A stretch of DNA of 64,000 nt from Chiloscyllium plagiosum (taxonomy: Eukaryota). Location of the stretch: assembly GCF_004010195.1 (NCBI RefSeq), contig NC_057756.1, positions 9,943,330-10,007,329 of the forward strand, in the 5' to 3' direction. Under the pieces are notes generated by a model, which was given only the letters and a program-made list of their open reading frames with translations, was not told the origin of the DNA and ran no database searches. Positions within the stretch are counted from its first letter, which is position 1. Each line of letters opens with the position of its first letter. A program made the position numbers and the translations under genes. This document shows, in pieces, positions 11,187 to 62,524 of the stretch.

Positions 11187-11351
11187 TTATTCTGTCATTT
11201 TAAAGTATCTGTTGATGTTTCTGACCAAATTTTCCAATATATACAAAGTGAGTATACATCTCGTCTGTCCTATCTTGTCGCCTCTGCATGTATTTATAAT
11301 GGCAAACATGGTCCTCCTGTCCAACCCAGTGTATTCCGACAGCTTTTGAAA
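11187..11351 (-). CDS. IFI44-like: IFI44-like terminal coding exon 7 (FQKLSEYTGLDRRTMFAIINTCRGDKIGQTRCILTLYILENLVRNINRYFKMTE*)
   Basis: Strong acceptor ctctctgtcctttttctcttag, phase 0, ending TAA TAG. The pattern resembles the IFI44 C-terminal helices. Confidence 0.75.
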   Translation of the reverse strand, partial: FQKLSEYTGLDRRTMFAIINTCRGDKIGQTRCILTLYILENLVRNINRYFKMTE

Positions 11352-11769
11352 CTAAGAGAAAAAGGACAGAGAGGTTTCAAACAGTAAGTATATAAATCTG
11401 TCAAAATGATGACACAATGTAAATCATAAATCTGGTATAAAGTTCACTGAAAAAAATGATCATTATTGTTTATCTTTTATTTGTGCTCAAATTGGCTCAT
11501 ATTTATTGTATGAAAACAGTGGCTATACTTTATTGGCTGCATTTGTGAAAGGGATTACGTAGAGGCTTGTCTGTCAACATATTGGACAGCCATATTTTAC
11601 ACAGCAAGATCCCATAAACAATGTATGAGTGAATCATTTGGTAATGTGATCTTTCAGAGCTGATAGAGGTGTAAACATTGGCCAGGACATAGGGGCTATA
11701 CACTCTCCCATCCCCAAACCTCTCATCCCAGCACACTTTATAGAAGGACTTTACTTTGTTGTTTTTATG

Positions 11770-13064
11770 TCTTTAAAAACTTGGAGAACAAAAATAAAGA
11801 ACTAGTCGTGATTGGAACTCCGTTGACTTTGTTGACTATGAGGTTGTTGATTGGGGCTGTTGAATATTAACAGGGGACGCAACTCCTCTTCATTAACTGT
11901 AATGGTTTGGAAGTCATTTGGAGGATGATGCCTATCTTTTACCAGAACCTGATCACTGTCTGGAACATGGTTGAATCGCATCACGCTTATCCTCTCGCAG
12001 GAGTAGCAGCGGTCGTCAGAGAGCCGTTGCTCAGGAATCTGCACCTCCGTACTCGCGAGTTCAAGTGGCTTTCAGAAGGTATGGCCGTAGCTGCAAGGCC
12101 GTAGCTAGGGTCGAAGACGTGCTGGATGGCGGGAGTCTGGGCTGGATGCTGCCACAGGATGTAGCAAGCAGGGCAGCGGTAGATGTCCGGTTCGTGGCCA
12201 CTGCCATTCGACGCCTTAAAACGGCGGTGCTCGGACTCAACATAGTGCACCAGTTGGACGATGCTCAGATGTGCGGTGGAATCCTATCTGGGTTTACTCC
12301 TGTCCGAACGGAATTAGCCCCAAGGAACCATACTTTCCCCGGGAACCTGTGCCCCACACCTCTTCTCCCTCATCCACCTCCCAGACACGCCTTGGCATGC
12401 CTATTTGCCACCGGGCAGCAGGGATCCCCAATGGAGTGTTGTCTACGTGGGAGTCCGCCCCCTTTCAGGGATCTGGGGTTGAGGATGCTGCATGTGGCAG
12501 TCCCCTACAACTGCAGATTGTGGTGGTTCACGGACTCCCAGCCCAACTGTTTGTTCTGTGGTGCTCTGGCATCCATGGACCATGTATATATTAGGTGTGG
12601 GCACTTGCACTCCCTTTTTGACTTCCTTAAAAACCTCCTCCTCTGTTTTTGGATACACTTCAGTCCCACGCTCCTGATCTTTGAACATCCAATACGGAGG
12701 GGGGAGGGTAGGTCAGAGGACCTCCTCATGGGTCTTCTCCTGGGCCTGGCCAAACTGACTATAAACAGGTCCAGGCAGCGGGCCGTGGAGGGGGTCGTTA
12801 GGGCTGATTGTCTGTCCACCTTCCACGATTTTGTCAGAGCCTGGGTGTCCCTGGAGAAGGAGCACGCTGTGTGCACCAACATTCTCGAGATTTTCAGGGA
12901 AAGGTGGGTGCCGCAGGGAGTGGAGTGTATCATTTCCGTCTCGAACTCTATTTTGATTTAATCCCTGCCCTTCCCTTCACTGTTTGCAGGACTGCCCTCC
13001 GAGAAGGGCACTGCTTGTCACTGGCCAGCTGGTGTTACCTTTCTTCCTGGTGGTGGAAATTGAA
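11770..13064 (+). mobile_element. Tx1/L1-clade LINE, ORF2 3' part
   Basis: ORF 12065..12961 contains a CLFCG...DHVYIRC zinc finger and LLLGLAKLTINRSRQ, typical of the Tx1-type ORF2 C-terminus. Confidence 0.75.
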
Positions 13065-13384
13065 TAGTCTGTGTACGTGTGCAAAGAGACTAATGTTTTA
13101 GGTAATGATAATACATGCCAATGGTTTATCTCTGGTTACTTATAGCTATATTCGAATTACTTGGAATAAATAATATTTCTTGGTTAGAGTAAAACCTAGT
13201 CTATGCTTTTTACCAGTCCTCACTTTCTCCTTGAAAGTCAAGTTAATTAGGGTATTGTGTGTATTTTTATACACTCCTATAAGATTGCAGTTTGATTTAC
13301 AGCAAACTTCCCCTGTGGGTTTGCCTGGGTTTGGATTGGAATGAACTGTGTTGGATACAGAAGCAATGAGGATATGACTGTGGC

Positions 13385-13947
13385 CTCCTCTATATTGGGG
13401 AGACGGGCCGCCTGCTTGCGGAGCGTTTCAGGGAACACCTCTGGGACACCCGGACCAACCAACCCAACCACCCTGTAGCTCAACATTTCAATTCCCCCTC
13501 CCACTCCACCAAGGATATGCAGGTCTTTGGACTCCTCCATCGTCAGACCACAGCGAAACGACGGTTGGAGGAAGAACGCCTCATCTTCCGGCTAGGAACC
13601 CTCCAACCACAAGGGATGAACTCTGATTTCACCAGTTTCCTCATTTCCCCTCCCCCCAGCCTGTCTCAGTCAAATCCATCAAATTCAGCACCGCCTTCCT
13701 AACCTGCAATCTTCTTCCCGACCTCTCCGCCCCCACCCCAGTCTGACCTATCACCCTCACCTTGACCTCTTTCCACCTATCACATTTCCGACGCCCCTCC
13801 CCCAAGTCCCTCCTCCCTATCTTTTATCTTAGCCTGCTGGACCAACTTTCCTCATTCCTGAAGAAGGGCTAATGCCCGAAACGTCGATTCTCCTGTTCCC
13901 TAGATGCTGCCTGACCTGCTGCGCTTTTCCAGCAACACATTTCCATC
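13385..13947 (+). mobile_element. Penelope-like element, GIY-YIG endonuclease and 3' terminal repeat
   Basis: LLYIGETGRLLAERFREH...HFN...EERLIFRLGTLQPQGMN; hammerhead-like CTGAAGA..GAAACGTC at ~13858-13885. Confidence 0.88.
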
Positions 13948-14579
13948 TATTGTAAAAATAACACCAGATTGTGTACTGCAGTTAAGACAGGGAACAACAA
14001 ATATTTTGCTGCAGGTGGCAGTGTTGTTGAGGCTGAGGCTGTAGAAATGGAACAGTTGCAGGAACAGGTTGTGGAAATTTTTCCATTATGTGCAGTGACT
14101 GCAGCTATGGCTAAACTTGAAGCAAAATGTTAGAATACATTAAAATGTAAGAAGTTCCAAAAACAGTAAATTTATATAAATGGGGAGGAAGAATGAAAGT
14201 CTTGCTGTCTGTATATTATGGATTTGTAATTACATGCATTTTGGAAATGACATTTAATTTTCGTTAAGGATGGGGGCACATAAGGACTTTTAGAATGTGT
14301 CGTGCAATGAGAAAGTACTGCTTTTAAAAACAGGAATTTACCAGGATGGCTGCATAATTTCACAGCAAGGCATTTGGTAACTGCTGTGAATTTTTGTTAT
14401 GGCTGTGGGTTCCTTAATATGCAGATGATCCAAAGAGGAGGAGTTGTTCACACATGAAGCTAATTGGTTCTTAGTTAACTGAGCAGGTTGAAGCAAGTCA
14501 TAGAGATACGAAAAGAGAGAAAGACACAAATGATTGTGGAATTGCTTTCCCCAGCAGAATCCAGCAGTAAAACAACATA

Positions 14580-17921: not shown

Positions 17922-18545
17922 GATTCTCTCAAGGTAAACTTGCAGGTTGAGTCAGCAGTTAGGAAGGCAGGTGTAATGATGGCATTTATTTTGGGAGGAC
18001 TTGAATATAAAAGCAGGATGTACTACTGAGGCTCTATAAGGCTCTAGTCAGACCACTTTTGAAGTACGGTGCACAGTTTTTGGCCACACATCTCAGGAAC
18101 GATATATTGGCCCTGGAATGGGTTCAGAGGATGTTCATGAGAATGGTCCCAGAAATGAAAAGCTTAACATATGAGGAATGTTTGATGACTCTGGGTTTAT
18201 ACTCGACTGAGTTAGAAGGATGAGGGGGAATCTCATAGAATCATCAAGATATATAACATGGAAACAGACCCTTTGGTCCTACTTGTCCATGCCGACCAAA
18301 TATCCCAATCCAATCTAGTCCCACCTGCCAGCACTTGGCCCAAATCCCTACAAACCCTTCCTATTCATATACCCATCCAGATGCCTTTTAAATGTTGCAA
18401 TTGTACCAGCCGCCACCACTTCCTCTGGCAGCTCATTCCATACACGCACCACCCTCTGTGAGAAAAAGTTGCCCCTTAGGTCTCTTTTATATCTTTCCCC
18501 TCTTACCCTAAACCTATGCCCTCTAGTTCTGGACTCCCCCACCTG
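17922..18545. mobile_element. Two abutting CR1 3' fragments in opposite orientation
   Basis: CR1 C-terminal translation on + (17922-18235) and RTRGHRFRVRGER on - (18233-18545). Confidence 0.8.
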
Positions 18546-18549
18546 CTTT

Positions 18550-21250
18550 CCAAAATGCACAACTGGCTCCCTTGGTAGATTAATTGTTTCTGCTTGCCCC
18601 ACAGAACCCATTTCTTCCTACCTCGAATAGATTTCTTCTGCCCTTCTCCAGTCCCTTCCCTGCAATTTCTCTGATGCTTTTACGTCAGTTCCAGAATTTC
18701 CAGTTTGCAGGTTCGACCTGTCTCCTCTTCACCATAGACGTGCAATTCCTTTACATCTCCACTCCCAATCAAGATGATATCAGGACTTTCTGCTTCTTCC
18801 TTGGAAAAAGGCCTGAACTGACCCCATCCACCATCAACCTTCTCCGCCTGGTCGAGCTCATACTCATCCTAAACAACTTCTCTTTTAACTCCTCTCACTT
18901 TCTTCAGGTACCATGGATATCCACATGGGTCTCAGTTATGCCTATCTCTATGTGGGGTAGATGGAATATTCCTTGTCCAGTTGTATTCCTGCCCTCAGGC
19001 ACAACTCTTTCTCTAGTATATCAATGATATAATTGGTGCCCCTTCCCCCTCTCATGCGGAACTGGAAAAGTTGATCAATTTTGCTTCCAATTTCCACCCT
19101 GCTTCCAACTTCCCTTCACCTGGTCCATCTCTGACTCATCCCTCCCCTCCCTCGACATCTCTGTTTCGATTTCTGGGAATAGGTTAGCCATCTATATCCA
19201 CTGTAGACCCACCTACTCTCACAGTTACCTTGACTATATATCCTCACACCCTACTTTCTGTAAAGACTCGATTTCATTCTCCCAGATCCTCCATCTATAT
19301 CAGATCTGTTCTGATGATGACAGATTCAATAAGGGAGCCTCCGAAATATCCATTTTCTTCCCCAGCACTGCTGTTGACATGGGTCTGACCCATTCCCCGC
19401 ATTCAGTATTCACTCCCTCTCTTCCATTCGACAACAACAATAGGGTCCTCCTTGTCCTTATCTATCTTCTCACCAGCATCCACATCCAGAGGATCATTAG
19501 CTGCTATTTCCACCACCTCCAGCAGGATGCCACCACCCAACATAAGAACTCAAAGCAGGAGTAGGCCATCTGGCCCTTTGAGCCTGCTCTGCTATTCAAT
19601 AAGATCATGGCTGATTTTCTCTTGCCTCAGCTTCACTTACCCACCCTCTCACCATAACTCTTAATTCCTTTACTGTTCAAAAATTTTCATCTCAGCATTA
19701 AAAACATTTAGTGAGGAAGGCTCAATCACTTCATTGGGCAGGTAACTGATTCACAAACCTCCGGGTAAAGAAGTTTCATCTCCATTCAGTCCTAAATCTG
19801 CTCCCTCTAATTTTGAGGTTGTGCCCTCTTGTCCTAGTTTCACCTGCCAGTGGAAGCATCATCCCTGCTTATATTAGATTAGATTACTTACAGTGTGGAA
19901 ACAGGCCCTTCGGCCCAACCAGTCCACACCGACCCGCTGAAGCGCAACCCACCCATTCCCCTACATTTACCCCTTTACCTAACACTACGGGCAATTCAGC
20001 ATGGCCAATTCACCTGACCTGCACATCTTTGGACTGTGGGAGGAAACCGGAGCACCCGGAGGAAACCCACACAGACACGGGGAGAATGTGCAAACTCCAC
20101 ACAGTCAGTCGCCTGAGTCAGGAATTGAACCAGGGTCTCTTGCGCTGTGAGGCAGCAGTGCTAACCACTGTGCCGCCCATCTTATCTATTCCCTTCATAA
20201 TTTTATATGTCTCTATAAGATTCACACTCATTCTTCTAAATTCCAATGAATAATCCCAGTCCAATTACTCAGTCTCTTCTTATAAGCCAAACCCCTCAAC
20301 TCCGGAATCAATCCAGTGAACCTCCTCTGCACCCCTTCTAGTGCTAGTACATCCTTTCTCAAGGAGACCAAAACTACACGCAGTACTTCAGGTGTGGCCT
20401 CACCAGCACCCTATATAGTTGCAACATAACCTCCCTGCTTTTACACTCAATTCCTTCAGCAATGAAGGACAAAATTACATTTGCTTTCCTAATTTCCTGT
20501 TGTACCTGCAGACCATTCTTCAGTAATTCATGCACAAGGACACCAAGGTTCTTCTGCACAGCAGCGTGCTGCAATTTCTTAGCATTCAAGTAATATCCTT
20601 GTAACAGCAATAGCCACATATTCCCCTCCATTACCTGTCTGCCTTCCACAGGAACTGTTCCTTCTGGGACACTCTTTGGTCCCACTAACCCTCACCCCAC
20701 AGTCCCATGGCACCTTTCCCTTCTACTGCAGAAGGTGTAACATCTGTCCATTTACCTCCCTCCTCAGTATGCAAAGACCCAAACGTATCTTCCAGGTGAA
20801 GCAGCACTTTACCTGCACTTTGCTTAATCTAGTCTAATGCTTTTGCTTCTCGCAATGTGGTCTCCTCTACACTGGGGACAGAAGTGTAGTCTGGGTGACT
20901 GCTTTGCAGAACACCTATGTTCTGACCACAAAAAGACTCTGAGATTCCAGTTGCCTGCCACACAGCACCTTATTCCCTGGCCAACATCTTCATCTCAGGC
21001 TTGCTGCAGTGCACCAGTGAAGCTCAGCTCAAGCTAGAAGAACAGCACCTCATTTTCTGCTTGGCAAGTCCATGGCTTTCTGCACTCAATATTGAGGTCA
21101 ACAATTTTAGGGTTTGAGACACCTTCTCCAATGTCGTTACCCCAACCCTGACACACCATGCCTTGTTATCAGATGGTTTGTTATTGCACACAACTCGTTG
21201 TTAGCCACTAATAGTCTCCATTAGTAGCTATTTATTCTCCTCAGCTAATT
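18550..21250 (+). mobile_element. Degenerate Penelope-like element (RT to GIY-YIG), interrupted by CR1 (~19540-20600, minus) and HE1 SINE (~19874-20180, minus)
   Basis: LFTIDVQFLY, ELILILNNFSFNSSHFLQ RT motifs and a downstream GIY-YIG remnant. Confidence 0.8.
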
Positions 21251-23329
21251 GTTATTCACCACCTTGACTGTCCAACAGTTCATCTTATCTTAACCAACTT
21301 ATTTTTCCTTCAGTAGCTAATTCAAGCTGTGACTTTGAATTTGATCAGTCAGTGACTTTTCATAAGCAAACCAGCCATCCTGTGCCTCTTGCAAACCAGT
21401 GGAAGCATTCGAGTAAAGAAAAGATCATGGAGAAATCTCTGAGTCAGCAAAAACCCACTAAACAGATCTTGCAAAAGGTTTTTCCAGTTTTCTCTCCATT
21501 CGTGTAATTTTTTCCCATTTTTAAATTTCTCTGCATTTATATTTGTGCAGGAAATAGTTCATAAGGGTTTGGAGTTTTAATTTCTCAAGTTTACTTCAAT
21601 TTATTGGTTACCTGTGACTAGATTTTAATTACCTCAAATAATTAGTGACTCTGGTTAAGTACGAACTCTAGTCCATGATTCCTATCAACTTGGGTTAAAA
21701 AATCACGCAGTTTGGGGATTTTACATAATCTTTCAAAATCTTTAGTTTTTGTGATGATTCCAGGAATAGTGAGGCTTGATTTTCAGTGTGCTATCCCAGA
21801 CGAGTCTTCACAAAATGCAAAGGCCAAAACAGCCTCAAAAAGTTGTGTCAATATTCATACAAAGCATAATAGGTGTTAGGTTCAAACAGCACCAATAATC
21901 ATACCAAATTCCAAGGGAATCACATGCAGGGGGTGGAGGACAGAAATGACAATGGTGTTGAAGAAGAAGCTGAGTAAGCTGTGTGAAATCAACTTTAGTA
22001 CCGAGATGTTGTATGAACAGATTGAAACATTCTGTTATCCTTCACAGCCACACATTCCCCAAGCCTCATCAATGCCAAATGATGCCATTTGCCCACTCAC
22101 ATGACACCTCATATCTCCGACAACACCCCTTGTCCTTTAAGCACCCCAGTGACCGCTGATATCTCCAAAGCCAATCTACGTCTCTCTTCCCAACCCCTAT
22201 GGCCCTGATGTCACCCATGACAACTCAGTGCTGACTCAGTCCCAACCTATATCCCACAGCTTCCTTTGCCTTTACAGCACCATTCTAACTCATGGTCTCC
22301 CCACTATGGGCAGACCTCAGGAGCGACGCTGAGAGGAAACAAAATGAAGCTGTAATTGCAGATTTTATTTAAAAAGATTTACTCATTCATAAAAAACACA
22401 TTCTCTCTTTAAATTCCTCCAACTCCTTAATTTTGCATACACGTAAAGACTCTATTCAATTAGTGAATGCCTTGTGAAAGCACATATTTGGATTCTTAGC
22501 CCAACATGAAAGACTTTCCATCTCTTGAAGCTATTAATCAAACTGTGAAAGAAAGGCCCCTCATCGTAGTAAAGGTAATCATATGGCATGATTTCTATAA
22601 TGGTGGCTCCCTGGTTTATGTCAGTAGACATAATGACATTGCAAGCACTGAATATTATAAATGGTAGACTTTTTTAAACTAAAAGGGCAATGGATTTAAA
22701 TACTGAGCAAGCTTGACCATTTCACTGATATTATTCCCTTTTTATGCATTTTCATGTCTCCACTTGGCAAACACAAAAATAACTTTCTCCTAAAGTGTTA
22801 CCTTGACTGATCAAAAAGGGATCTTTGGACCTATCTAGAGGGTCTGTTGTCTCTCCAAATAACCTGGGAAGCTCTTCAATGTGCAGTTTCTTCCATGAAC
22901 CACGAGTGTGAAAGATTCAATCTGTTTCCATCCCCTGAAACTCCCACTTCACCTTCTTCACTAATGAGTGTTGGGTTTAAGGATAGAACTTCCAGAACTG
23001 GGGCTAAGTTAGAGTCTCCTTTCATTCCTGTTAAACAATTGAGGACATAGAAAATAGTTGAATTGTAACTGAGAAATTAAAAGCTCGTGTTAAATATTAC
23101 CATTTTCTCCATAGTTATGATTGCAATATGATTGGTTGACTTCTAGCAATGATTTGTGAGAAGTGTGACTCAGACTCAAGTGCTTTTACATAAGAAGAAA
23201 TTCTATACACATGTATATAGTTGTTTCAGGTTGACATTAAATGCAGGAAATACTCATCATGTCAGGCAGCATCTGCACAGAGAGGGACAAAGTTAACATT
23301 GAAAAATAACTGTTCGTCTCACTGCAAAT

Positions 23330-23560
23330 AGGAGAAAATGAGGACTGCAGATGTTGGAGATCAGAGTCAAAAAGTGCAGTGCTGGAAAAGCACAGCTGGT
23401 CCGGCAGCATCGGAGGACTAGGAGAGTTGACATTTTGAGCATAAGCTCTTCATCATCACATTCCCGATAAAGGGCTTATGCCTGAAACATGTATTCTTCT
23501 GCTCCTCGGATACTGCCTGACCAGCTGTGCTTTTCCAGTGTCACACTTTTTGACTCACCA
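23330..23560. mobile_element. Short palindromic Penelope-like element
   Basis: gaggactgcagatg...ctggaaaagcacagc arm and its inverted counterpart. Confidence 0.7.
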
Positions 23561-24099
23561 CAGATAATGTCTGGCCTGCTTTTGTGTTGAAACAATTAAG
23601 TGATTTCATTCACAAGGATCAAGATGAGATGAATTGGGGCAAAATATCAAAAATGGGAAGAGGCAAAAGTTGTAGCTGAGTTTGACAGAAAGAGAGAGGG
23701 ATGTTCTGACTAATTGACCTAACACTGAGATGGAATTAATCTAGATCTGTGTAATGTTAATGAATGTGATGATCAGGCCTACTCTGATCAGCTGATGAAT
23801 ACCTCCAGCAGATAAACAACTTAGTACTCACAAGTAGATTTTGAATCACTACACTGAAAGTGATCTTTACTCAACATAGTAATCTCCGAAAATTCTGCAT
23901 GCACACAAACACCCTATTGAGGACTGCCCTATCTACAAACAAGTGGTGGAATAATCGCCTTAAACTCAACAACTGAGGAGGCAGTCACTTGACTCAAGGG
24001 ATATGGATTTGCTGAATCAATAAATAAGTGCTCAGGAATTGTAAGTATTTATGCTGTTGGGAACATTCAGTATAACAGAAACATTTTTCTTTGATTTAG

Positions 24100-24259
24100 T
24101 TGCATGAATTTAATCCCAGTTTTGAAGATAAACATTCAATCATTCCAGAAAATATCATTCATGGAGTGGCTTTCGTTTTTGATATGAACACATTCGACAA
24201 CATTGATCCGTATATAATGAAACAGTTTCAGGAGCTCCAAACTCTTGTGGCTCAGAAAT
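24100..24259 (+). CDS. IFI44-like: IFI44-like exon 5 (160 nt; LHEFNPSFEDKHSIIPENIIHGVAFVFDMNTFDNIDPYIMKQFQELQTLVAQK)
   Basis: Acceptor tttctttgatttag and donor gtaagt. FNP...IHGVAFVFD matches the IFI44 hallmark FNP...IHCVAFVFD. Confidence 0.85.
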
Positions 24260-24352
24260 GTAAGTCTCCATTTTGCTTTCAGACTTATAACCTTTATTGC
24301 CATTCAGTACCCTGTTGAACATTAATATTTTTACTGAATTCTATCTTTTCAG

Positions 24353-24450
24353 ATATTTACAGGATTGTGATTGGGACCAAATTTGACCAATTAGGGATAC
24401 CAGAGAGACATTATAGTTACATATACAACTACAAGCTGCTACAAGAGAAG
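24353..24450 (+). CDS. IFI44-like: IFI44-like exon 6 (98 nt; YIYRIVIGTKFDQLGIPERHYSYIYNYKLLQEK), G4 TKxD
   Basis: Acceptor ctatcttttcag and donor gtaata after a 93-nt intron. Phase 1 continues exon 5; carries a TKFD motif. Confidence 0.8.
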
Positions 24451-25039
24451 GTAATAGTTTTAGTGCATAGTATCACGTATATTGATGTCAGTACAATTTT
24501 TTTTAGTTTGTGATATGGGTATTATTGGAAAGGTTAGTACTGATTGCCCATCATGTATCACCATTGACAAAGTAGTGTGTTGCATTCATGAAATGCTACA
24601 GTTAATTGACTGAAGATGTTTTGATACAGTAATCCCCAAGTTTCGACATTGGTCTGGACTCTTAGCCCCCAGCTCCTCCAATTAACTAAATGTGTCAATG
24701 TGAGGATGGAAGGGCTGAATGGGGCACTCAAATACACTCAATTCAGGAAGCAGGTTTTAGCCTGAAGATATCTCTCAGTGAGGGGGCACAGGCAGACAGG
24801 AGAACATTCATTGGTCTTCTAAGTCAGAGGGTGTAGGCAAAACTCCCATTGCTGAAACATCAGCCTAAAGTCTAGACTGATGCTCCATACTGAGAGAGTG
24901 CAGCACAGTTAGAGATGAATTGTCCAGAATGTGATGCTTAACTGAAGCTCTGCCTGCCTCTCTAGGCACAATTCAAAACACAATCAGTGCTACAATGCAC
25001 TGGACTAATGCACCATAAATCTAGCTCTTTTTTTGTCTA

Positions 25040-28000
25040 GAGTTCATTTGTTCAGTAGATATAGGAGTAGAATTAGGCCATTTGGCCCATTGAGTCTGCT
25101 CCGCCATTTCATCATGGCTGATATGCTCCTCGCCCCCATTTTCCTGTCTTCTCCCCATAACCCTCGACCCATTAGCAATTAAAAATCCCGCCTAGCTCCT
25201 CCTTAAATTTACTCACTGTCCCAGTATCCACCACACTTTGGGATAGCGAATTGCACAGATTCACAATCCTTTGGGAGAAGTAGTTTTTCTTCAACTCTGT
25301 TTCAAATGTGCTACCCCTTATCCTAAGACTATGTTAGAATGCCCCACAGGAGGAAGCATCTACTCTACATCTAGTTTATCCAGACCTTTCATCATCTTGA
25401 AAACATCAATTTGATCTCCCCGCATTCTTCCAAATTCCAGAGATTTCAGGCATAAATTGTTCAATCTCTCTCCATATGACAAAACCCTCATCTTTGGGAT
25501 CAATCTTGTAAAACTCCTTTGAACCGCCTCCAATGGCACTACATCTTTCCTCAAATAAGGGGACCAAAACTGAGCACAATACTCCAGGTGTGGTCTTATC
25601 AATGCCTTGTGTAGTTGCAACAATACTTCCTTACATTTATATTCTATTCATTTAGCTTTAAAAGCCAACATTCCATTCACTTTCTTTATTATCTGGATGG
25701 CTGAATGCTAGTTTTCTGTGACTCATGAATGAGCACACCCAGATCCCTCTGTACCGTAGCACCCCAAGGTCTCTCCCCATTTAGATAATAGGTTGCCTTC
25801 CATTTTTCTGACCAAAATGCATGACCTCACACTTATCCACATTAAAATGCATCTGCCACATTTTGGTCCACTTTCCTAACACTTCCTCATTGCATTATGC
25901 TGCCTATTTTTGTGTCATCTGCAAATTTGCCTTTGAGCCTCTATCCCTGCATCCAAGTCATTAATATTGATTATAAATAGCTGGGGCCCAAGGACTGAAC
26001 CCTGTGGCACCGCACTAGTTATTTATTGCATCCAGAAAAATAAAATTTATCCTGACTCTCTGTCTTCTGTCCATCAGTCAGTCACCTATCCAAGCTAATA
26101 CATTACGTATAATCCCATATGATCCAATATTGTGAATTAATGTTTTGTGTGACACCTTATCAAATGCCTTCCGGAAGTCCAGATATTTTACATCTACAGG
26201 ATCCCCTTGATCCACTTTGCTTGTTACATCTTCAAAGAATTCTAGCAAATTAGTCAAACATGATTTTCCTTTTGCAAAACCATGCTGAATCTGACGAATA
26301 GCGTTTTGACTTTCCAAGTGTTTTGATATTGCTTTTTTGATCATTGATTCCAAGCAAATGTACACACAGTGCGTCCAGTTGACCCGATTTTCAGACCAAG
26401 GTTGATGGAAAGCACAGACCTACACTAACCAAGAATTAATTCCGATGATTAAATACAGCTACAGATAAAAGGATACAAGCTATTGGCACATCACACTACC
26501 AACTAAAAATCTAATCATTTGATAAATTCCACCCCCAATGAAAAACACAGACAAAACAGTGAAAACAGACTAACGATGGAGGTAAACAAAAACTGGAAAC
26601 TCCATTGATTAGTCTTTGCTTCTTAGTCTCAATGTTGAGGTGAATCGTCTTTGGCTCACCAGGCCCTTGGTGTTCAATTGTCTTTCTTTTAATACTCCCA
26701 CTAGTTTGTAAGTGGCAAATAAATTAAATTAAAGAGTGGATGATGCATTTGTACAATGCTTCTCATTTCTAAATTCAAACATTATTGTTCACAATTGCTG
26801 CAGGCAGGAAAACTGGTTTTATAGAGTCATAGAGATGTACCGTACAGAAACAGACCCTTCAGTCCAACTCGTCCACACCGACTGGATATCCCAACCCAAT
26901 CCAATCCCACCTGCTGGCACTTGGTCCATATCCCTCCAAACCTTTCCTATTCATATAACCATCCAGATGCCTTTAAAATGTTGCAATTGACTAGCCTCTA
27001 TCACTTCCTCTGGCAGCTCATTCCATACACATACCACTCTGTGTGAAAAAGTTACCCCTTAGGTCACTTTTATATCTTTCCCCTCTCACCCTAAACCTAT
27101 GCCCTCTACTTCTGGACTCCCCTACCCCACGGGGGTAAGACCTTGTCTATTTATCCTATCCATGCCCCTCATGATTTTATAAACCTCTATAAGGTCACCC
27201 CACAGCCTCCGATGCTCCAGGGAAAACAGCCCCAGGCCATTCAACCTCTCCCTGTAGCTCAAATCCTCCAACCCTGGAAACTCCCTGTAAATCTTTTCTG
27301 AACCCTTTCAAGTTTCACAACATATTTCCAATAGGAAGGAGACCAGAATTGCATGCAATATTCCAACAGTGGTCTAAAAAATGTCCTGTACAGCTGCAAC
27401 ATGACCTCCCAACCCCTGTACTCAAGACTCTGACCAATAAAGGAAAGCATACCAAATGCCTTCTTCACTATGTAAACACCTGTGACTCCACTATGAACCT
27501 GCACTCCAAGGTCTCTTTGTTTAGCAACACTCCCTAGGACCTTACCATTAAGAGTATAAATCCTGCTAAGTTAGCACAAACTGATCCATGCCGACCAAAA
27601 TATCATTCCATGCGAACCCCATTTCCCTGCACTTGGCCCATATTGTTCTAAACCTTTCCTTTCCATGTATTTGTCCAAATGCCTTTTAAATGTTGTTCAT
27701 GTACCTGCCTCAACTACTTCCACCAACAGTTCATTCCATATGCATACCACCCTCTGTGTAAATAAGTTGCCCCTCATGTTCCCATTTATTCTTTCCCCTC
27801 TTACCTTAAACTGATGGCCTCTCATCCTCCAATTCCCCAACCTCGGGGAAAAGACTGAGTGCATTCACCCCATCCATACCTCTCAGAATCTTATACACTT
27901 CTGTAAGATCCCCCCTCAGTCTCCGACACTTAAAAGAAAAAAAGTCCTAACCAGTCCAACCTCTCCAAAAAGCTCAGTCCCTTGAGTCCTGGCAATATTC

Positions 28001-30175
28001 TTTAATTCTTTTTCTGCATTATTTCCAGTTTAATAACATTCTTCCCAAAGCAAGGTGACCAAAACTGAACACAGTACTCCAAGTGCAGCCTCACCAATGT
28101 CCTGTACAACTGTGACATAATTTCCTAACTTCTGTATTCAATGTCCTAACTGATGAAGGCCATTGTGCCAACAGTCTTCTTCACTGCTCTGTCTGGGGTG
28201 GCACGGTGGCACAGTGGTTAGCACTGCTGCCTCGCAGCACCACAGACCTGGGTTCAATTCCTGTCTCGGGCAACTGTCTGTGTGGAGTTTGCATATTCTC
28301 CCAGTGTCTGCGTGGGTTTCCTCCCACAGTCTAAAGATGTGCAGGTTAGGTGAATTGGCCATGCTAAATTGCCTGTAGAGTTAGGTGAAGGGGTAAATAA
28401 AAGGGTTGCTCTTCGGAGGGTCGGTGTTGACTTGTTGGGCCGAAGGGCCTGTTTCGACACTATAAGTAATCTAATCTACTTATGACTCCACTTTCAGAGA
28501 ATTGTACGCCTGAACTCTCTTTGTTCCACTATACTCCTTAAGGACCTACCATTCACATTGATTTGACTTTCCAAAATGCAACACTTCACATTTATCTGTA
28601 TCAAACTCCATTTGCCATTTCTTGGCCCCACTTCACCAGCTGCTCAAGATCCAGCTGCAATTTCTGATAACCATCCTCACTGTCCACGATAACACCTAGT
28701 TTAGTGTCATCTGCAAACGTATTAATCATGCCTTGTACATTCTCATCCAAATCATTGATACAGATAACAAACAGCAATGGGCCCAGCATTGACCCTGGGC
28801 ACACCGCTAGTCACAGGCCTCCAGTCCGACAAACACCCTTCCACTATTACCCTCAGCTTCCTACTATCAAGCCAATTGTATATCCACTTTGCCAGCTTGC
28901 CCTGGATTCCATACGATCTAACCTTTCAGAAAGCCTACCATGCGGAATCTTATCTAGGGCCTTACTGAAATCCATACAGACTATTCCTAGTGCCCTGCCT
29001 TCATCAACCTTCCTTGTCACTTCATCAAAGAACTCTAATAAATTTGTGAGACGTGATCTCCTAGCTAAAAAGTCATGCTGACTACTCCTAATCAAACCCT
29101 GTCTTTCCAAATGCATGTTTATCTTATTCTTCAGAATTTTCGCTCGTAATTTACCTACCACAGATGTCAGGCCTACTGGTCTATAGTTCCCATGTATTCT
29201 TTGCAGCCCTTCTTTAATAAGGGCACAACATTTGTTTCCATCCAGTATTCTAGGACCTCACCTGTAGCTCACGATGATGCAATTATATCAACCAGGGTAC
29301 CTGCAATTTCTTCTTTCGCCTCTTGCAGTGTTCTTGGCTGTATCTGGTCAGGACCAGGAGATTTATCCATCTTCATACATTCTAACATGTTCAATACCTC
29401 CTCTACTGTGATATGGACTGTCCCCAAAATATCACCGCTAACTTCCCCAAGTTCCTTAGTCTTCTTGTCTTTCTCCGCGGCAAACACAGAGGTGAAATAT
29501 TCGTTGAGGACCTCACCCATTTCCTCTGATACATATGTGTCCACTTTGGTTCTTGAGAGGTCCTTTTCTCTCTATAGTTACTCGTTTTCCTTTAATATAT
29601 TTAAATAATCTTCTCGGCCAAAACTATCTTGTGTCCCCATTACCTTCTTCAGTAATCTCCTGCATCCCCTGTATACCTCCAGGGATTCTCAACCTCAGCT
29701 GCTCCTACCTGAGCCATGCCTCCTTTTATTTTTCTGGTCACAGCCTCAATATCTCTTGTCCTGGGTTCCCTACTCCTGCCAAACTTGCCCGTCACCCTCA
29801 GAGGAACATATAGATCATGAACTCTAGCTATTATACTATTAAATACCACTTGCCAGAGGTCCCTTTGCCTGCAAACAAACTACTCCAATCCACCCCTGTA
29901 AGCTCCTGTCCAATTCCTTCGAACTTTGCCTTGCCCCAGTTTAGAATTTGAACCTGTGGACCAGTTTTGTCTCTCTCTGTAGCAATTTTAAAAATATTAG
30001 AACAATGGCCACTGGTCCTAAAGTGCTCCCTCAGCTGTCATCTCAGTCACCTGTCCTGCCCTATTTCCCAAGAGTTGGTGGTGTTTTGCCCCTTCCCAAG
30101 TACGACACTCCATATAATGCTTCAGGAAACTTTCCTGAACACACTTAACAAGTTCCATTCCATCAAAGCCCTTAA
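25040..30175 (-). mobile_element. Cluster of CR1 LINE remnants (~25040-26355, ~26820-27570, ~27575-30175) with HE1 SINE at ~28196-28480 (+)
   Basis: QHGFAKGKSCLTNLLEFFE, FADDTK and IRPHLEYCAQFWSP translations. Confidence 0.88.
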
Positions 30176-30736: not shown

Positions 30737-30957
30737 TGCTGAAAACGTGTTGCTGGAAAAGCGCAGCAGGTCAGGCATCATCCAGGGAAGAGGACAATCG
30801 ACGTTTCGGGCATAAGCCCTTCTTCAGGAATTCCTGAAGAAGGGCTTATGCCCGAAACGTTGATTCTCCTGTTCCCTGGATGCTGCCTGACCTGCTGCGC
30901 TTTTCCAGCAATACATTTTCAGCTCTGATCTCCAGCATCTGCAGTCCTCACTTTCTC
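30737..30957. mobile_element. Short palindromic Penelope-like element with two hammerhead cores
   Basis: Symmetry centre ttcaggaa|ttcctgaa at 30830/30831; TSD CTTTCCGTGATTAT (30723-30736, 30958-30971). Confidence 0.85.
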
Positions 30958-34170: not shown

Positions 34171-34195
34171 GAGCTCTTTTGGAAAACAGTTCTGA

Positions 34196-40280: not shown

Positions 40281-40299
40281 GTAGGAACACTTAGTGTTC

Positions 40300-42254: not shown

Positions 42255-43608
42255 CTGCAGCAAGCCTGAGATGAAGTTGTTGGCCAGGGAATAAGGTGCT
42301 GCGTGGCAGGCAACTGGAATCTCAGAGTCTTTTTGTGGTCAGAACATAGGTGTTCTGCAAAACAGTCACCCAGTCGACACTTCTGTCCCCAGTGTAGAGG
42401 AGACCACATTGCGAGAAGCAAAAGCATCAGACTAGATTAAGTGAAGTGCAGGTAAAGTGCTGCTTCACCTGGAAGATATGTTTGGGTCTTTGCATACTGG
42501 GGAGGGAGGTAAATGGACAGATGTTACACCTTCTGCAGTAGTAGGGAAAGGTGCCATGGGACTGTGGGGTGAGGGTTAGTGGGACTGAAGGGTGTCCCAG
42601 AAGGAACAGTCGCTGTGGAAGGCGGACAGGTAATGGAGGGGAATATGTGGCTATTACTGTTACAAGGATATTACTTGAATGCTAAGAAATTGCAGAACGC
42701 TGCTGTGCAGAAGAACCTTGGTGTCCTTGTGCATGAATTGCAGAAGAATGGTCTGCAGGTACAATAGGAAGTTAGGAAGGCAAATGTAGTTTTGTCCTTC
42801 ATTGCTAAAGGAATTGAGTGTAAAAGCAGGGAGGTTATGTTTCATCTCTATAGGGTGCTAGTGAGGCCACACCTGGAGTACTGCGTGTAGTTTTGGTCTC
42901 CTTTAGAAAGGATGTACTGGCACTCAAAGGGGTGCAGAGGATGTTCACTGGATTGATTCCAGAGTTGAGGGGTTTGGCTTATAAGAAGAGACTGAGTAAA
43001 TAGGCTGGGATTATGTTCATTGGAATTTAGAAGAATGAGTGTGAATCTTATAGAAACATATAAAATTGTGAAGGGAATACATAAGATAGAAGCAGGGAGG
43101 ATGCTTCCACTGGCAGGTGAAACTAGGACAAGAGGGCACAGCCTCAAAATTAGAGGGAGCAGATTTAGGACTGAATGGAGATGAAACTTCTTTACCCGGA
43201 GGTTTGTGAATCTATGAAATTGCCTGCCCAATGAAGTGATTGAGCCTTCCTCACTAAATGTTTTTAATGCTGAGATGAAAATTTTTGAACAGTAAAGGAA
43301 TTAAGAGTTATGGTGAGAGGGTGGGTAAGTGAAGCTGAGGCAAGAGAAAATCAGCCATGATCTTATTGAATAGCAGAGCAGGCTCAAAGGGCCAGATGGC
43401 CTACTCCTGCTATGAGTTCTTATGTTGGGTGGTGGCATCCTGCTGGAGGTGGTGGAAATAGCAGCTAATGATCCTCTGGATGTGGATGCTGGTGAGAAGA
43501 TAGATAAGGACAAGGAGGACCCTATTGTTGTTGTCGAAGGGAAGAGATGGGGTGAATACTGAATGCGGGAGATGGGTCAGACCCATGTCAACAGCGGTGC
43601 TGGGGAAG

Positions 43609-43938
43609 GTTAGATTAGATTACATTAGATTAGATTACATTACAGTGTGGAAACAGGCCCTTCGGCCCAACAAGTCCACACCGACCCGCCGAAGCGAAAC
43701 CCACCCATACCCCTACATTTACCCCTTACCTAACACTACGGGCAATTTAGCATGGCCAATTCACCTGACCCTGCACATCTTTTGGACTGTGGGAGGAAAC
43801 CGGAGCACCCGGAGGAAACCCACGCAGACACGGGGAGAACGTGCAAACTCCACACAGTCAGTCGCCTGAGGCGGGAATTGAACCCGGGTCTCAGGCGCTG
43901 TGAGGCAGCAGTGCTAACCACTGTGCCACCGTGCCACC
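43609..43938 (-). mobile_element. HE1-type SINE, full length
   Basis: A box TGGCACAGTGG, B box GGTTCAATTCC and (TAATC)n tail on the minus strand. Confidence 0.9.
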
Positions 43939-44869
43939 AAGACGATGGATATTTCGGAGACTCCCTTATTGAATCTGTTAGCATCAGAACAGATCTGATA
44001 TAGATGGAGAATCTAGGAGAATGAAATCGAGTCTTTACAGAAAGTAGGGTGTGAGGATATATAGTGAAGGTAACTGTGAGAGTTGGTGGATATAGATGGC
44101 GAACCTATCCCCAGAAATCGAAACAGAGGTGTCAAGGGAGGGGAGGGAGGAGTCAGTGATGGACCAGCTGAAGGGAAGAAGGGCTCATGCCCGAAACATC
44201 GATTCTCCTGCTCCTTGGATGCTGCCTGACCTGCTGCGCTTTTCCAGCAACACATTTTCAGCTCTGATCTCCAGCATCTGCAGTCCTCACTTTCTCCAGG
44301 TGAAGGGAAGAGCAGGGTGGAATTGGAAGCAAAATTGATCAACTTTTCCAATTCTGCATGAGAGGGGGAAAGGGCACCAATTATATCATTGATATACTAG
44401 AGAAAGAGTTGTGCCTGAGGGCAGGAATACAACTGAAACAAGGAATATTCCATCTATCCCACATAGAGATAGGCATAACTGAGACCCATGTGGATATCCA
44501 AGGTACCTGAAGAAAGTGAGAAGAGTTAAAAGAGAAGTTGTTTAGGATGAGGATGAGCTCGGCCAGGCGGAGAAGGTTGATGGTGGATGGGGTCAGTTCA
44601 GGCCTTTTTCCAAGGAAGAAGCAGAGTCCTGATACCATCTTGATTGGGAGTGGAGATGTAAAGGAATTGCACGTCAATGGTGAAGAGGAGACAGATCGAA
44701 CCTGCAAACTGGAAATTCTGGAACTGAAAGCGTCAGAGAAATTGCAAATATAAGTGGGAAGGGAACTGGAGAAGGGCAGAAGAAATCTATTCGAGGTAGG
44801 AAGAAATGGGTTCTGTGGGGCAAGCAGAAACAATTAATCTTTCAAGGGAGTGACTTGTGGATTTTGGGA

Positions 44870-47800
44870 AGGAGGTGGGGCAGTCCAGAACTGGAGGGAA
44901 AAGTTTAGGGTAAGAGGGGAAATATATTAAAGAGACCTAAGGGGCAACTTTTTCACACAGAGGGTGGTATGTATATGGAATGAGCTGCCAGAGAAATGGT
45001 GGAGGCTAGTACAATTGCAACATTTAAAAGGCATCTGGATGGGTATATGAATAGGAAGGGTTTGTATGGATTTGGGCCAGGTACTGGCAGGTGGGACTAG
45101 ATTGGATTGGGATATCTGGTCGGTGTGGACAAGTTGGACTGAAGGGTCTGTTTCCGTGCTATATATCTCGATGACTCTATGAGATTCCCCCTCATCCTTC
45201 TCAACTCAGTCGAGTATAAACCCAGAGTTATCAAACGTTCCTCATATGTTAAGCTTTTCATTTCTGGGACCATTCTCATGAACGTCCTCTGAATCCGTTC
45301 CAGGGCCAATATATCCTTCCTAAGATATGTGGCCCAAAACTGTGCACCGTACTTCAAATGTGGTCTGACTAGGGCCTTATAGACCCTCAGTATTACATCC
45401 TGCTTTTATACTCAAGTCCTCCCAAAATAAATGCATTTTTACACTTGCCTTCCTAACTGCTGACTCAACCTGAAAGTTTACCTTGAAAGAATCCAGGACG
45501 AGAACTCCCAAGTCTCTTTGCACTTCTGAATTTTCTCCCCATTTAGAAAAAAGTCCATGCCTCTATTCTTCCTACCAAAGTGCATGACTTCACACTTTCC
45601 CACGTTCTACTCCATCTGCTATTTCTTTGCCCACTCTCCTAACCTTCTACAGTCTCCCTGCCTCCTCAATGTTATCTGTCCCTCTACCTATCTTCATATT
45701 AATGGCGAACTTAGCCAGAATGCCCTGAATTCCTTTATCTAGACATTTAATGTGTAAAGTGAAAAGTCGTGGTCCCAACACTGAGCCTTGCAGAACACCA
45801 CTTGTCACTGATTGCCATCCTGAGAAGGATCCTTTTATCCTCACTCTCTGCTTCCTGCCAGGAAGCCAAGCTTCTACCCATACTAGCACCTTGCCTCAGT
45901 CAACATGGACCCTTATCTTACACAGCACCCTCCTGTGCAGTATCTTGTCAAAGGCCTTCTTGAAATCCAGGCAGATAACATCCATTGGCTCTCCTTGGTC
46001 TAACTTGCTTGTTACTTCCTCAAAGAACTTTAGCAGATTTGGCAGGCATGACCTCCCCTTGATGTAATCATACTGACTTTGCCCTATTTTACCATACACT
46101 TCAAAGTATTCAGAAATCTCATCCTTCATGATGGATTCCAGGATCTTACCCATTACAGAGTTTAGGCTAATCAGTCTGTAATTTTTTTGTCTTTTGCCTT
46201 ACTCCCTTTTCAAACAGGAGTGTCACATTAGCAATTTTCAAGTCCTCTGGGACCCGCCCTGATTCTAACGATGTGGTAAGATAATTTTTGATGAAAAAGG
46301 TAAATGCCTCTCAAAATACATTTTCATTCTTCAGTGAGGGAGGTGTGGTGTAATATATGGACTTATACAGAAATTTGTAAAATATTACTTATTGTAAGTT
46401 TGGGTTTCTGGTGTTTGAGTTTGTATCCAAACTTTGTACATCTGATTGATGTTAATAATTAACTTAGGTATTTCTGTAGCGATAGTCATTTCTTTTAAAA
46501 CAGTTTAGGGACTGGAGCTTTACAATGGCCTTTATTTGTTTGCTTGGAATATCTGGAACTTATTTGTTTTAAGCTGAAGGGAAACAGCCAGAGCAGAAAG
46601 ATGGACAGTAATGACTGCAGATGTGAAACTTGGAAGGGTTCAGAAAAGATTTACAAGGATGTTGCCAGGTTTGGAGGGTTTGAGCAATAGGGAGAGGCTG
46701 AATAGGCTGGGGTTGTTTTCCCTGGAGCATTGGAGCTGAGGGATGGCCTTATAGAGGTTTGTTTATAAAATCATGAGGGACATGGATAGGGTAAGTAGAC
46801 AAAATCTTTTCCTCGGGGTGGGGGAGTCCAGAACTAAAGGGCATAGGTTTTGGGTGAGAGAAGAAAAATATAAGAGGACCCTAAGGGGAAATGGTTTCAA
46901 GCAGAAGGTGGTGCGTATATGGAATGAGCTGCCAGAGGAAGTAATGAAGGTTGATACAATTGCAGGTTTTAAGAGGCATCTGGATGGTATATGAACAAGA
47001 AGGGTTTAGAGGGATATGAGCCAAGTGCTGGCAGATGGGACTAGATTAGGTTAGGATATTTGGTCAGCATGGACAAGTTGGACCGAAGGGTCTGTTTCCG
47101 TGCTGTACTTCCCTATGGCCCTATGGCTCTATGACTCTTTGCTGGAAGTCAGAGTCAATAGATGTGAAGCTGGAAAGGCACAGCAGATCAGACAGCATCC
47201 AAGGTGCAAGAAAGTCAATGTTTTGGGTCTGGGGATTGGGTGGGGCAAGGGTAGGTGGGATGGTGATAGTTGGATGCATGTAGGGAGTTATTGTGATTGT
47301 TCATTGTGAAGGGTGAAGTGGATAGGTGAGTAGGAGGATGGACAGGTGAGGACAGGTGAGGGAGGTGGTGAGGAGAGAGAGGGCTGGAGAATTCAATACT
47401 GTGGCCATTGGGCTATGAGATCCCCAGGCAAAATATGAGGCGTTGTTCCTTCAATTATCAAGGAAGCAATATTAGGACATTTGGAAAGTCAAAATGCTAT
47501 CCATCAGAGCCGAATGGTTTAATGAAGGGCAAATCATGTTTGATAAGTTGCTGGACTTCTTCAAAGATGCAACAAGTAAAGTAGATCATAGGATGCTGTA
47601 GATGTAACACATCTGGACTTCCTGAAGGTGTTTGATAAGGTGCTGCACAAAAAGTTAATTAACGAGGTTGGATTATACGAGATTAGGAGTAATTTATTAG
47701 CCTGCATCGATGACTGGCTGATGGACAGAAGACTGACAGTTGGGATAAATGGGGTTTCTTCTGGAGGGCAAGATGTAACTAGTGGGGTGCCAGAGGGTTT

Positions 47801-61067: not shown

Positions 61068-62088
61068 ACTAGTTTTGTTTTGGACTTCACAGCAGAAGAG
61101 TCAAGTCATGTCATGTCGACCAGTCAACCAATGGAAGTGGTTTCCAGTCTGTGGAGCTTTCAAGCTGTGACAGCCCTTGTGGACATACTTGTTAGAATGA
61201 AGACTGTTTAGGCTATCAGAACTGGGTAAGGTTCATGGCTCCAGTCTCAAAAATGAATCGTAGAATCAAAAATTAGTCTCAGCATCCAAGAGAAAGAAAC
61301 TGGGAAGAGTCAGTTCAGTAAAGATTTAAAAATTATTTCTCTGTAATTGACTATGTCAAAAGATAATCTTTGTAAATAGTCTGAAACATTGTGTTGCTGC
61401 TTGTGTTGAGACCTTTCTATCTGTCTTCAATATATTGAAAATAATGTTTATTTCTTATGTTCGAGAGTTAAAGAATATTTCCAACCCCATAAATGTATTT
61501 CACTAACTCAGCACTCCAACAGTCAACTGCAAAAAAGTTAAATAATTAAACATATGCTACATCAAACCAAGTTTGAATCTGGAATCAGAACAGAATCTTC
61601 TTTAGTTCGTAACATTGGAACAGTATGGGTTGTAGATTTTAAAGAAGGAAGGATATTAAATATTGTTATATTATCCTATTGGCTCAGTGTTTCCTGTAAT
61701 GACTACATTTCCAAAGCACTTTGTTGGCAAGAAAGTGTTTTGGCATTTAGTGGCCATGCTTTCATCAAGGTGTGACTCCAGCCCTACACTGATGTGCTGA
61801 TACTTAACTGCCTTCTGAAATGGCTCAGCACACTACTTGCTGTTGCTGTTGTGCAAAATGATTAGAAAATCCAGGAAGTCCAGTAGAAGAGACATACTGG
61901 TCCATTTGTATTATATACTTTTAAACAGAGCTTCATTAGAACCAGTACATTCATTTCCAGGTATTACTCCTGTTTTGACCGGTTTGTTTTTATCCCTTTG
62001 GATCCTCTCATCAGAGTTGGACAATAAACAGGATTGCCAGTTGCAGCAACATACAAAGAATTATTAAAATAAAAGCAGCAGACAGTAC

Positions 62089-62290
62089 CGTGGGTGTGAG
62101 AGATTTCCGATTCCGCTCAATTGGAGCAAGGTTCGTTATTCTTCCTTTTGGATCCAGAGCTGAGAGAAATGTGTTAATGGTGGCTGATATACCAGCTCCC
62201 TCCATTCCAAACAGCAAGATGTTTATATACTTCCCACATTCTCTGGGAGGCTGGTAGTCCAACAGATAGTCCCTCAGAGATTCCAGCTTT
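62089..62290 (-). CDS. IFI44-like: IFI44-like exon 3 (202 nt; KLESLRDYLLDYQPPRECGKYINILLFGMEGAGISATINTFLSALDPKGRITNLAPIERNRKSLTPT), G1/G2 region
   Basis: Acceptor ttttttggcag and donor gtactg. ILLFGxxGAGxS..IN.F.S resembles the IFI44 P-loop segment (RILLLGPIGAGKSSFFNS). Overlaps ORF 62011..62262. Confidence 0.85.
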
Positions 62291-62386
62291 CTGCCAAAAA
62301 AATATAAGAAGGGTGTAAAAAGTTAAAATTGAAGTGCTTTTTGTTTACATAATTTATGAATTGATTTGGCTGGTCCAGAAACTCAC

Positions 62387-62432
62387 CGTCGGTTGAAAAC
62401 TGGACTGTGAACAGCATTATCATTCGAATAAG
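62387..62432 (-). CDS. IFI44-like: IFI44-like exon 2 (46 nt; SYSNDNAVHSPVFNRR)
   Basis: Acceptor ctctttttatttcag and donor gtgagt; phases 1 and 2 match the neighbouring exons. Confidence 0.75.
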
Positions 62433-62514
62433 CTGAAATAAAAAGAGAATGTATTAAATTATTTAGTTTAAAATACGAGTATAGAATCAGAGAACCACAA
62501 AATTATTGACTTAC

Positions 62515-62524
62515 AGCTTCCCAT
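62515..62524 (-). CDS. IFI44-like: IFI44-like gene, coding exon 1 (ATG GGA AGC T | gtaagt)
   Basis: Minus strand reads ccagacATGGGAAGCT followed by a consensus gtaagt donor. Phase 1 joins exon 2 in frame (M-G-S-S). Confidence 0.7.

Follow-up and report, generated by a model that had tools for sequence, protein, structure and literature searches.

A 64,000-nucleotide (nt) stretch of the Chiloscyllium plagiosum genome (NC_057756.1, positions 9,943,330 to 10,007,329; hereafter, the window) was found to contain a complete gene whose predicted product is an IFI44-like G domain and whose seven coding exons lie on both strands. As a whole, the observations are best explained by an intact, single-copy gene combined with a scaffold piece that was placed backwards, an explanation that we regard as likely. 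An earlier note on this DNA had proposed seven GT-AG-bounded segments, with exons 1-4 and 7 on the minus strand and exons 5 and 6 on the plus strand between two 500-N gaps; both the segments and their strands were confirmed. N runs were present at 17422-17921 (500), 31795-31851 (57), and 41007-41506 (500), and the two 500-N runs split the window into pieces A (1-17421), M (17922-41006), and B (41507-64000). The features of the gene and the middle piece are listed below, where P0002 denotes a 269-amino-acid (aa) 'uncharacterized protein [Chiloscyllium punctatum]'.

62515..62524, minus strand: exon 1, coding part, 10 nt, ATGGGAAGCT followed by gtaagt; start of MGS...
62387..62432, minus strand: exon 2, 46 nt, obtained by script extraction
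62089..62290, minus strand: exon 3, 202 nt, with the P-loop GMEGAGIS and SLTPT (G2-like); 99% identity to P0002
53810..53938, minus strand: exon 4, 129 nt, with FWDLAGW (G3, DxxG)
24100..24259, plus strand: exon 5, 160 nt, with the IHGVAFVFD strand
24353..24450, plus strand: exon 6, 98 nt, with GTKFD (G4-like)
11187..11351, minus strand: exon 7, coding part, 165 nt including the TAA stop
11076..11081, minus strand: putative AATAAA poly(A) signal, 106-111 nt past the stop, read directly from the DNA
17922..41006, no strand: scaffold piece M between the two 500-N gaps, about 23 kb, holding the 57-N gap and exons 5 and 6 on the plus strand

The exon lengths (10+46+202+129+160+98+165) sum to 810 nt, corresponding to 269 codons and a single terminal TAA. 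AG was present at six of six acceptors and GT at six of six donors, and several of the borders have a strong consensus (gtaagt, gtgagt). The end of exon 4 and the start of exon 7 are both in phase 0, so that skipping of exons 5 and 6 keeps the frame. The gene spans more than 51 kb of the window, with introns full of repeats. P0002 was first found by a protein search with exon 3 alone, and the joined product proved to be identical to it at 262 of 269 residues without gaps. Because the joined product matches an independent database protein of 269 aa to this extent, chance can be ruled out, and the exon chain is a real gene. The seven differences are located in exon 3 (one), exon 5 (one), exon 6 (one), and exon 7 (four). 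Three of them are derived in P0002, one is derived in the window, and three could not be polarized, indicating that the window copy has undergone no extra decay.

A tblastn search of the window with P0002 yielded four strong matches (E 4e-25 to 3e-46) spanning exons 2-7, and all remaining matches had E values of at least 1.1. In a search of the 3.56-Gb genome, matches with at least 73% identity were limited to the window's own exons, and those to paralogs had at most 60% identity. The gene is complete and single-copy at the exon level. The possibility raised earlier that the 269-aa product is a chimera of two copies is not supported at the exon level, as each exon is single-copy in the window and in the genome. 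A weak tblastn match in M (35833-35990, E 7.7), considered as a degenerate copy of exon 7, was not supported at the nucleotide level and was rejected.

The scaffold carries a tandem cluster of IFI44-like paralogs around the window, located at approximately 9.82 Mb (+), 10.07-10.08 Mb (-), and 10.12 Mb (-); further paralogs were found on two small contigs. The paralog at 10.07-10.08 Mb encodes P0032, 'interferon-induced protein 44-like isoform X2 [Chiloscyllium plagiosum]', with agreement at 64 of 64 residues in exon 7 and 43 of 45 in exon 4; its exons 3, 4, 5-6, and 7 lie on one strand within about 10 kb. P0032 is 391 aa long and has an N-terminal extension of about 120 aa. On one small unplaced contig (G000:C101878:17101-24414), paralog exons 5, 6, and 7 with 40-50% identity to P0002 are on the plus strand and exon 3 is on the minus strand downstream, which may reflect another mis-join or two convergent gene fragments.

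A search with full-length P0002 retrieved 52 proteins, all from named sharks or rays or unnamed (one Logan-only row), many of which are 269-270 aa long and show 51-58% identity over 99-100% of the query. The NCBI name 'interferon-induced protein 44-like' is carried by 28 of the 52; since these names are automatic, the link to IFI44 was checked directly by profile and pairwise searches. A profile built from 28 of the 52 relatives, chosen as near-full-length, was run against 1.84 billion representatives and gave 825 matches at E <= 1e-3 and 211 at E <= 1e-10. It matched a mammalian IFI44 (Mustela/Lutra cluster) with an E value of 4.1e-17, profile positions 22-267 aligning to residues 168-422, and Myotis IFI44L with an E value of 6.4e-18. 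Ten profile matches sampled from the 150 listed were 439-481 aa long and were matched in their C-terminal half; these full-length relatives, which also include a sturgeon IFI44-like protein and mollusc TLDc/IFI44-like proteins, all carried a TLDc domain above the Pfam cut-off (10/10). BLASTP of P0002 gave 26% identity to Myotis IFI44L (E 5e-10) and 23% identity to Mustela IFI44 (E 3e-8). In the pairwise alignments, the P-loop contexts align, and IHCVAYVLD and IHCVALVFD stand opposite the shark IHGVAFVFD. No TLD domain (PF07534) was detected in P0002 by Pfam at E <= 1. The assignment to the IFI44 family made in the earlier note is thus upheld by the profile and BLASTP matches for the G-domain half and fails for the TLDc half, which is absent. 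Because TLDc is absent, the predicted product is IFI44-like and G-domain-only, not a canonical IFI44.

Structural comparisons also pointed to the IFI44 family. In the ESM Atlas, the nearest clusters by features were all 'IFI44-like', and by structure 'Interferon-induced protein 44' clusters with TLD and MMR_HSR1 were retrieved with template-modelling (TM) scores of 0.84-0.85 over about 255 residues. An AlphaFold2 model from the 28-relative alignment (mean predicted local distance difference test, pLDDT, 85.4; predicted TM score, pTM, 0.87) has the canonical G-domain order, with the P-loop after strand 1, DLAG after strand 3, and TKFD after strand 5. The nearest solved folds were GIMAP7/GIMAP2, Toc34, EngB, the EF-Tu G domain, and Irga6 (E 7.5e-6 to 7e-5; query-based TM score, TMq, 0.36-0.51). 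Together with the sequence matches, these predictions indicate that the product corresponds to the IFI44/IFI44L-family G domain alone, with a TRAFAC-type GTPase fold, and that the gene belongs, as judged from its sequence, to a shark/ray subfamily of IFI44-like proteins of about 269 aa. The immune gene family to which it belongs is a known, expanded one, and the gene is an ordinary member of it. A literature search on IFI44 in sharks and elasmobranchs found, as judged by titles and abstracts in the library searched, no printed description of this short shark/ray subfamily. In zebrafish, the IFI44 family has 19 members, of which 7 are interferon-stimulated, according to a preprint (Levraud et al. 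2019 bioRxiv).

Two kinds of predicted protein in the family depart from this length. P0001 from Mustelus asterias (559 aa) is made up of two complete IFI44-like G domains, one after the other and each with GAGKS; it could reflect a genuine fusion, or the gene predictor may have joined two adjacent genes. Ray isoforms P0036, P0039-P0041, and P0043 are 226-227 aa long, about 43 aa below 269-270 aa; 43 aa is the size of exon 4 here, and these lengths suggest predicted exon-4 skipping in the family.

The strand anomaly was then considered in relation to the assembly. Repeat sequence lies at or just beyond all four contig ends that face the two 500-N gaps: A ends in a LINE-type (long interspersed element) repeat (13854-17421) with reverse-transcriptase remnants elsewhere in the window, B starts with a high-copy repeat (first ~170 nt; 41507-41680), M ends on the right in a high-copy repeat (40291-41006), and the left end of M is the exact point where a high-copy repeat begins in a duplicate copy described below. 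Orientation errors are expected where repeat-ended contigs are joined by scaffolding alone. Genome searches with the contig-end sequences found no third contig bridging either gap, and GC skew across the gaps was unable to tell the two orientations of M apart. Piece M is probably mis-oriented in the scaffold. Its placement in the wrong orientation between the two scaffold joins would put exons 5 and 6 on the opposite strand, and flipping it would give the order exon 4 (53810), exon 5, exon 6, exon 7 (11351) on one strand, the introns then measuring about 18.5 kb and 22.6 kb, not counting the gaps.

The neighbourhood of exons 5 and 6 is present twice in the window, as follows.

17922..25212, plus strand: duplication copy 1, in M, with exons 5 and 6 intact
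41507..45493, minus strand: duplication copy 2, in B on the gene strand, inside intron 4, without the 3.4 kb holding exon 5 and nearly all of exon 6
42255..42261, minus strand: deletion junction in copy 2, with a short microhomology; what is left of exon 6 is its final few bases and the donor (AAGAGAAG then GTAATAG)

The two copies (M 17922-25212, plus; B 45493-41507, minus) align in five colinear blocks with 92, 89, 97, 95, and 90% identity, and the three blocks upstream of exon 5 have 92-97% identity over about 3 kb. The B copy lacks the counterpart of M 21010-24434, which corresponds to exon 5 and to exon 6 save its last few bases. The non-repeat parts of the duplication (M 20601-21009 and 24435-25040) occur twice in the genome, both times in the window. 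Each copy carries its own SINE-like (short interspersed element) insertion, at M 19875-20178 and B 43609-43938, respectively. Because of the 3-10% divergence and the independent SINE-like insertions, the copies are regarded as old paralogous duplicates, not haplotypes, and a haplotig reading of the B/M duplicate is ruled out on the same grounds. As assembled, the two copies are inverted repeats; with M flipped, they become direct repeats across the second 500-N gap, with the exon-less copy just upstream, inside intron 4. Direct repeats across a gap are what a tandem duplication typically looks like, and assemblers typically break at such places. The involvement of a duplication suspected in the earlier note is therefore borne out, in that the neighbourhood of exons 5 and 6 has a second copy from which these two exons are deleted; the exon-deleted duplicate itself is a feature absent from that note and is new here. 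A further match, between A 13854-17421 and M 27416-30831 (87%), was rejected as a second segmental duplicate, since both stretches are most likely copies of one LINE-type repeat that bears remnants of reverse transcriptase.

Six-frame translation located the five motifs named earlier, namely GMEGAGIS (62185-62208, minus), LTPT (62089-62100, minus), DLAG (53891-53902, minus), IHGVAFVFD (24157-24183, plus), and TKFD (24376-24387, plus). Their description as G1-G4-like needs one amendment, as the lysine of Walker A is missing from the G1-like motif, which reads GAGIS instead of GAGKS. In the P-loop, which starts at residue 47, this position is K in 27 of 27 other aligned members and I (codon ATA) in the window gene and P0002. 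In the alignment of 28 relatives, D99 and G102 (DxxG), I149, H150, V152, and T191 (TKxD/E) are invariant or nearly so. Because the Walker-A lysine is replaced by isoleucine, this pair of proteins probably does not bind or hydrolyze GTP normally. The product starts with MGxxxS, and MGxxx[ST], the usual N-myristoylation pattern, is found at the start of 25 of the 28 aligned relatives; the start of the product suggests that it is N-myristoylated.

Two candidate promoter elements, one of them resembling an interferon-stimulated response element (ISRE), were found just upstream of the start codon.

62560..62570, minus strand: ISRE core, gene-strand sequence GTTTCTGTTTC (= GAAACAGAAAC), 36-46 nt before the ATG
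62587..62595, minus strand: kappaB-like GGAATTTCC (GGGGATTTCC in the paralog), upstream of the ISRE, a conserved block in the promoter alignment with paralog L005

The name kappaB-like for GGAATTTCC reflects its resemblance to the kappaB consensus and is our assumption. The ISRE core GAAANNGAAAC has three matches in the 64 kb versus 0.78 expected. The remaining two, at 19163-19173 (minus) and 44114-44124 (plus), are the same word, GAAATCGAAAC, at matching places in the two duplicate copies and hence represent one duplicated site, not independent occurrences. In paralog L005 (~9.82 Mb; exon 3 60% identical), exon 1 is identical (ATGGGAAGCT then GTAAG), and GTTTCACTTTC lies 39-49 nt upstream of it as the sole such match in the 3.2-kb locus. 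The position of the predicted ISRE is conserved between the gene and this paralog.

On this basis, interferon or infection would induce the gene through the ISRE and the kappaB-like site, the myristoylated product would then be lipid-anchored to a membrane, and the isoleucine-bearing product, which probably neither binds nor hydrolyzes GTP normally, would serve as a scaffold or regulator, or would be losing its function. Function without the Walker lysine is conceivable, because deletion of the G1 region of human IFI44 left its restriction of respiratory syncytial virus (RSV) in place, as reported in a preprint (Busse et al. 2020 bioRxiv).

As for the cause of the strand anomaly, we consider it very likely that the 23-kb piece M is mis-oriented, and this is much likelier than a real inversion, because the reversed exons coincide with the sole piece that has a scaffold gap at each end, the setting in which orientation is least reliable, and because exons 5 and 6 are well preserved, with intact splice sites and 2 of about 86 residues differing from P0002, no worse than in the other exons. 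A real inversion would mean that recombination between the inverted 4-7 kb duplicate copies flipped the exon 5-6 segment in this individual or species, leaving the gene broken or giving only an in-frame exon 4-to-7 product (183 aa), while the sister species keeps the working orientation. A crossover upstream of exon 5, where the inverted copies are 92-97% identical over three blocks, would turn a colinear gene into exactly the assembled layout; the phase-0 skip from exon 4 to exon 7 and the failure to find a protein of this species for the gene in the protein collection are also in line with it. However, recombination would be expected to place the breakpoints within the repeats and not at the gaps, inversions that break a gene are a priori rare, and the state of exons 5 and 6 speaks against it, so that we regard this explanation as improbable. 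A variant, to which we assign a low probability, is a gene with 'on' (colinear) and 'off' (split) orientations flipped by recombination between the 92-97% identical inverted duplicates, the two forms being either polymorphic within bamboo sharks or what distinguishes C. plagiosum from C. punctatum; if this were true, function would hang wholly on the orientation of copy 1, the gene-strand copy having lost exons 5 and 6. It is very improbable that M is misplaced, being a contig from a second, otherwise collapsed gene copy or a false duplication, which would make the 269-aa product a stitch of two loci. M is homologous to both flanks (copy 2 in B, and the 87% match to A), which could mislead a scaffolder, the gene-strand duplicate lacks exons 5 and 6, and collapsed near-identical duplicates would need read depth to be seen. 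Nevertheless, no second copy of any exon with more than 60% identity was found genome-wide, the unique parts of the duplication occur only in the window, the A-M match reflects a LINE-type repeat found in many further copies, the duplicates diverge too far to be haplotypes, and exons 5 and 6 of M are as near to P0002 as the flanking exons.

Whatever the state of the assembly, the gene could be a decaying or non-catalytic member of the family, in which the K-to-I change ended nucleotide binding in the common Chiloscyllium ancestor and the open reading frame (ORF) is merely undisrupted so far. The confinement of isoleucine to the orthologue pair fits this, as does the lack of a Pfam GTPase match above the cut-off in P0002, whereas the K-bearing P0001 matches MMR_HSR1 at 35 bits. 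The ORF, 269 aa in both Chiloscyllium species, is nevertheless intact, as are the 12 splice sites, the start MGxxxS, the DxxG and TKxD motifs, and the ISRE, and the antiviral effect reportedly kept by the human G1 deletion also argues against decay, a reading that we consider unlikely. Our preferred explanation, an intact gene with M placed backwards, has several points to answer. The change from K to I may render the protein inactive, and relaxed constraint could account for the seven replacements that separate its 269 residues from those of the sister species. N-myristoylation, induction by interferon, and anchoring to a membrane are read from motifs, and expression, the exon 4-5 and 6-7 junctions, and the true orientation of M are likewise predictions for this genome. 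One recombination between the inverted repeats, 92-97% identical over about 3 kb, could possibly have truly inverted the exon 5-6 segment. Finally, Pfam gave nothing above its cut-off for P0002; AIG1 (PF04548) scored 17.2 bits versus a cut-off of 27, matching only 21 residues around the P-loop, and on single exons, which are too short for such a search, a sub-threshold AIG1 match was obtained for exon 3 only.

No protein of C. plagiosum resembling the gene was found among proteins of 30-471 aa in a collection of 5.8 billion, nor with exon 3 as the query among proteins of at least 119 aa, although absence from this collection does not prove absence from every annotation. In an older C. punctatum assembly, P0078, a 78-aa 'hypothetical protein', comprises part of exon 5 and exon 6 and then reads through into intron 6, and the newer assembly annotates the full 269 aa (P0002). 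The earlier expectation that automated annotation would fragment the gene agrees with P0078 and with the missing C. plagiosum protein. Because the C. punctatum orthologue is annotated in full, the gene is not an unknown one. A search of sequencing runs with exon 7 and the 3' untranslated region found 11 runs that contain all or part of it, of a kind that was unknown or guessed, none being recorded as RNA.

For curation, these results single out a shark scaffold of 10.7 Mb as probably containing an orientation error and recover a complete immune gene for which no protein model from C. plagiosum was found. The sequences further point to tandemly expanded, TLDc-less, probably myristoylated IFI44-like mini-proteins in sharks and rays, with one orthologue pair that dropped the Walker-A lysine while keeping everything else. 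The putative ISRE and kappaB-like site at a conserved distance from the start codon would offer a testable handle on the age of interferon control in the family. The exon-deleted duplicate in intron 4 illustrates that local duplications both confuse assemblers and supply substrates for real rearrangements.

The other repeats in the window were also characterized. A G-rich minisatellite near the right end of M (39054-40229; 49-nt unit, 24 copies, 94% matches) opens long spurious ORFs. LINE-type repeat copies, 65-88% alike, occupy 3942-5688, 7634-9382, 13854-17421, 26821-30831, and 58025-60096 and account for the strong GC-skew blocks in the window; in the copy at 8221-9247 (minus), ORFs for a reverse transcriptase are present but broken (Pfam RVT_1, E 1e-9). 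Seven copies of a SINE-like repeat some 310 nt long, 80-94% alike, were also identified, two of which are the independent insertions into the duplicate copies. Their positions are as follows.

16286-16615: SINE-like copy
19869-20177: SINE-like copy
28196-28478: SINE-like copy
34827-35145: SINE-like copy
43615-43947: SINE-like copy
49999-50301: SINE-like copy
60530-60839: SINE-like copy

Compared with mammalian IFI44 and IFI44L, the shark protein shows homology across the whole C-terminal G domain and shares the ILL(F/L)G-x-x-GAG context of the P-loop, DxxG followed by a non-glutamine residue, and the IHxVA(F/Y/L)V-D strand, and the gene likewise has a predicted ISRE in its promoter region. The shark protein differs in its length (269 aa versus about 440-450), the lack of TLDc, the MGxxxS start, and the replacement of the Walker-A K by I. 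The short IFI44-like proteins of sharks and rays (about 269-290 aa), such as P0006 of Hypanus sabinus, P0012 of Mobula hypostoma, and P0024 of Mustelus asterias, resemble it in length class, MGxxxS start, G3 and G4 motifs, and tandem clustering on one scaffold, whereas the other 27 aligned members have GAGKS and only the window gene and its C. punctatum orthologue have GAGIS. The neighbouring paralog occupies about 10 kb, in contrast to more than 51 kb for the window gene. The orthologue P0002 has the same I in the P-loop and the same length of 269 aa, but it is annotated as one colinear protein on a 76.7-Mb record, while in the window the exons are distributed among three pieces of the scaffold and on both strands. 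Immune GTPases also include the GIMAP and IRG proteins. GIMAP/AIG1, Toc34, and IRG (Irga6) proteins share the TRAFAC G-domain topology with the shark protein, with TMq values of 0.42-0.48 for the GIMAP fold, but their sequence identity to it is 11-16%, and the shark protein is not a member of these families.

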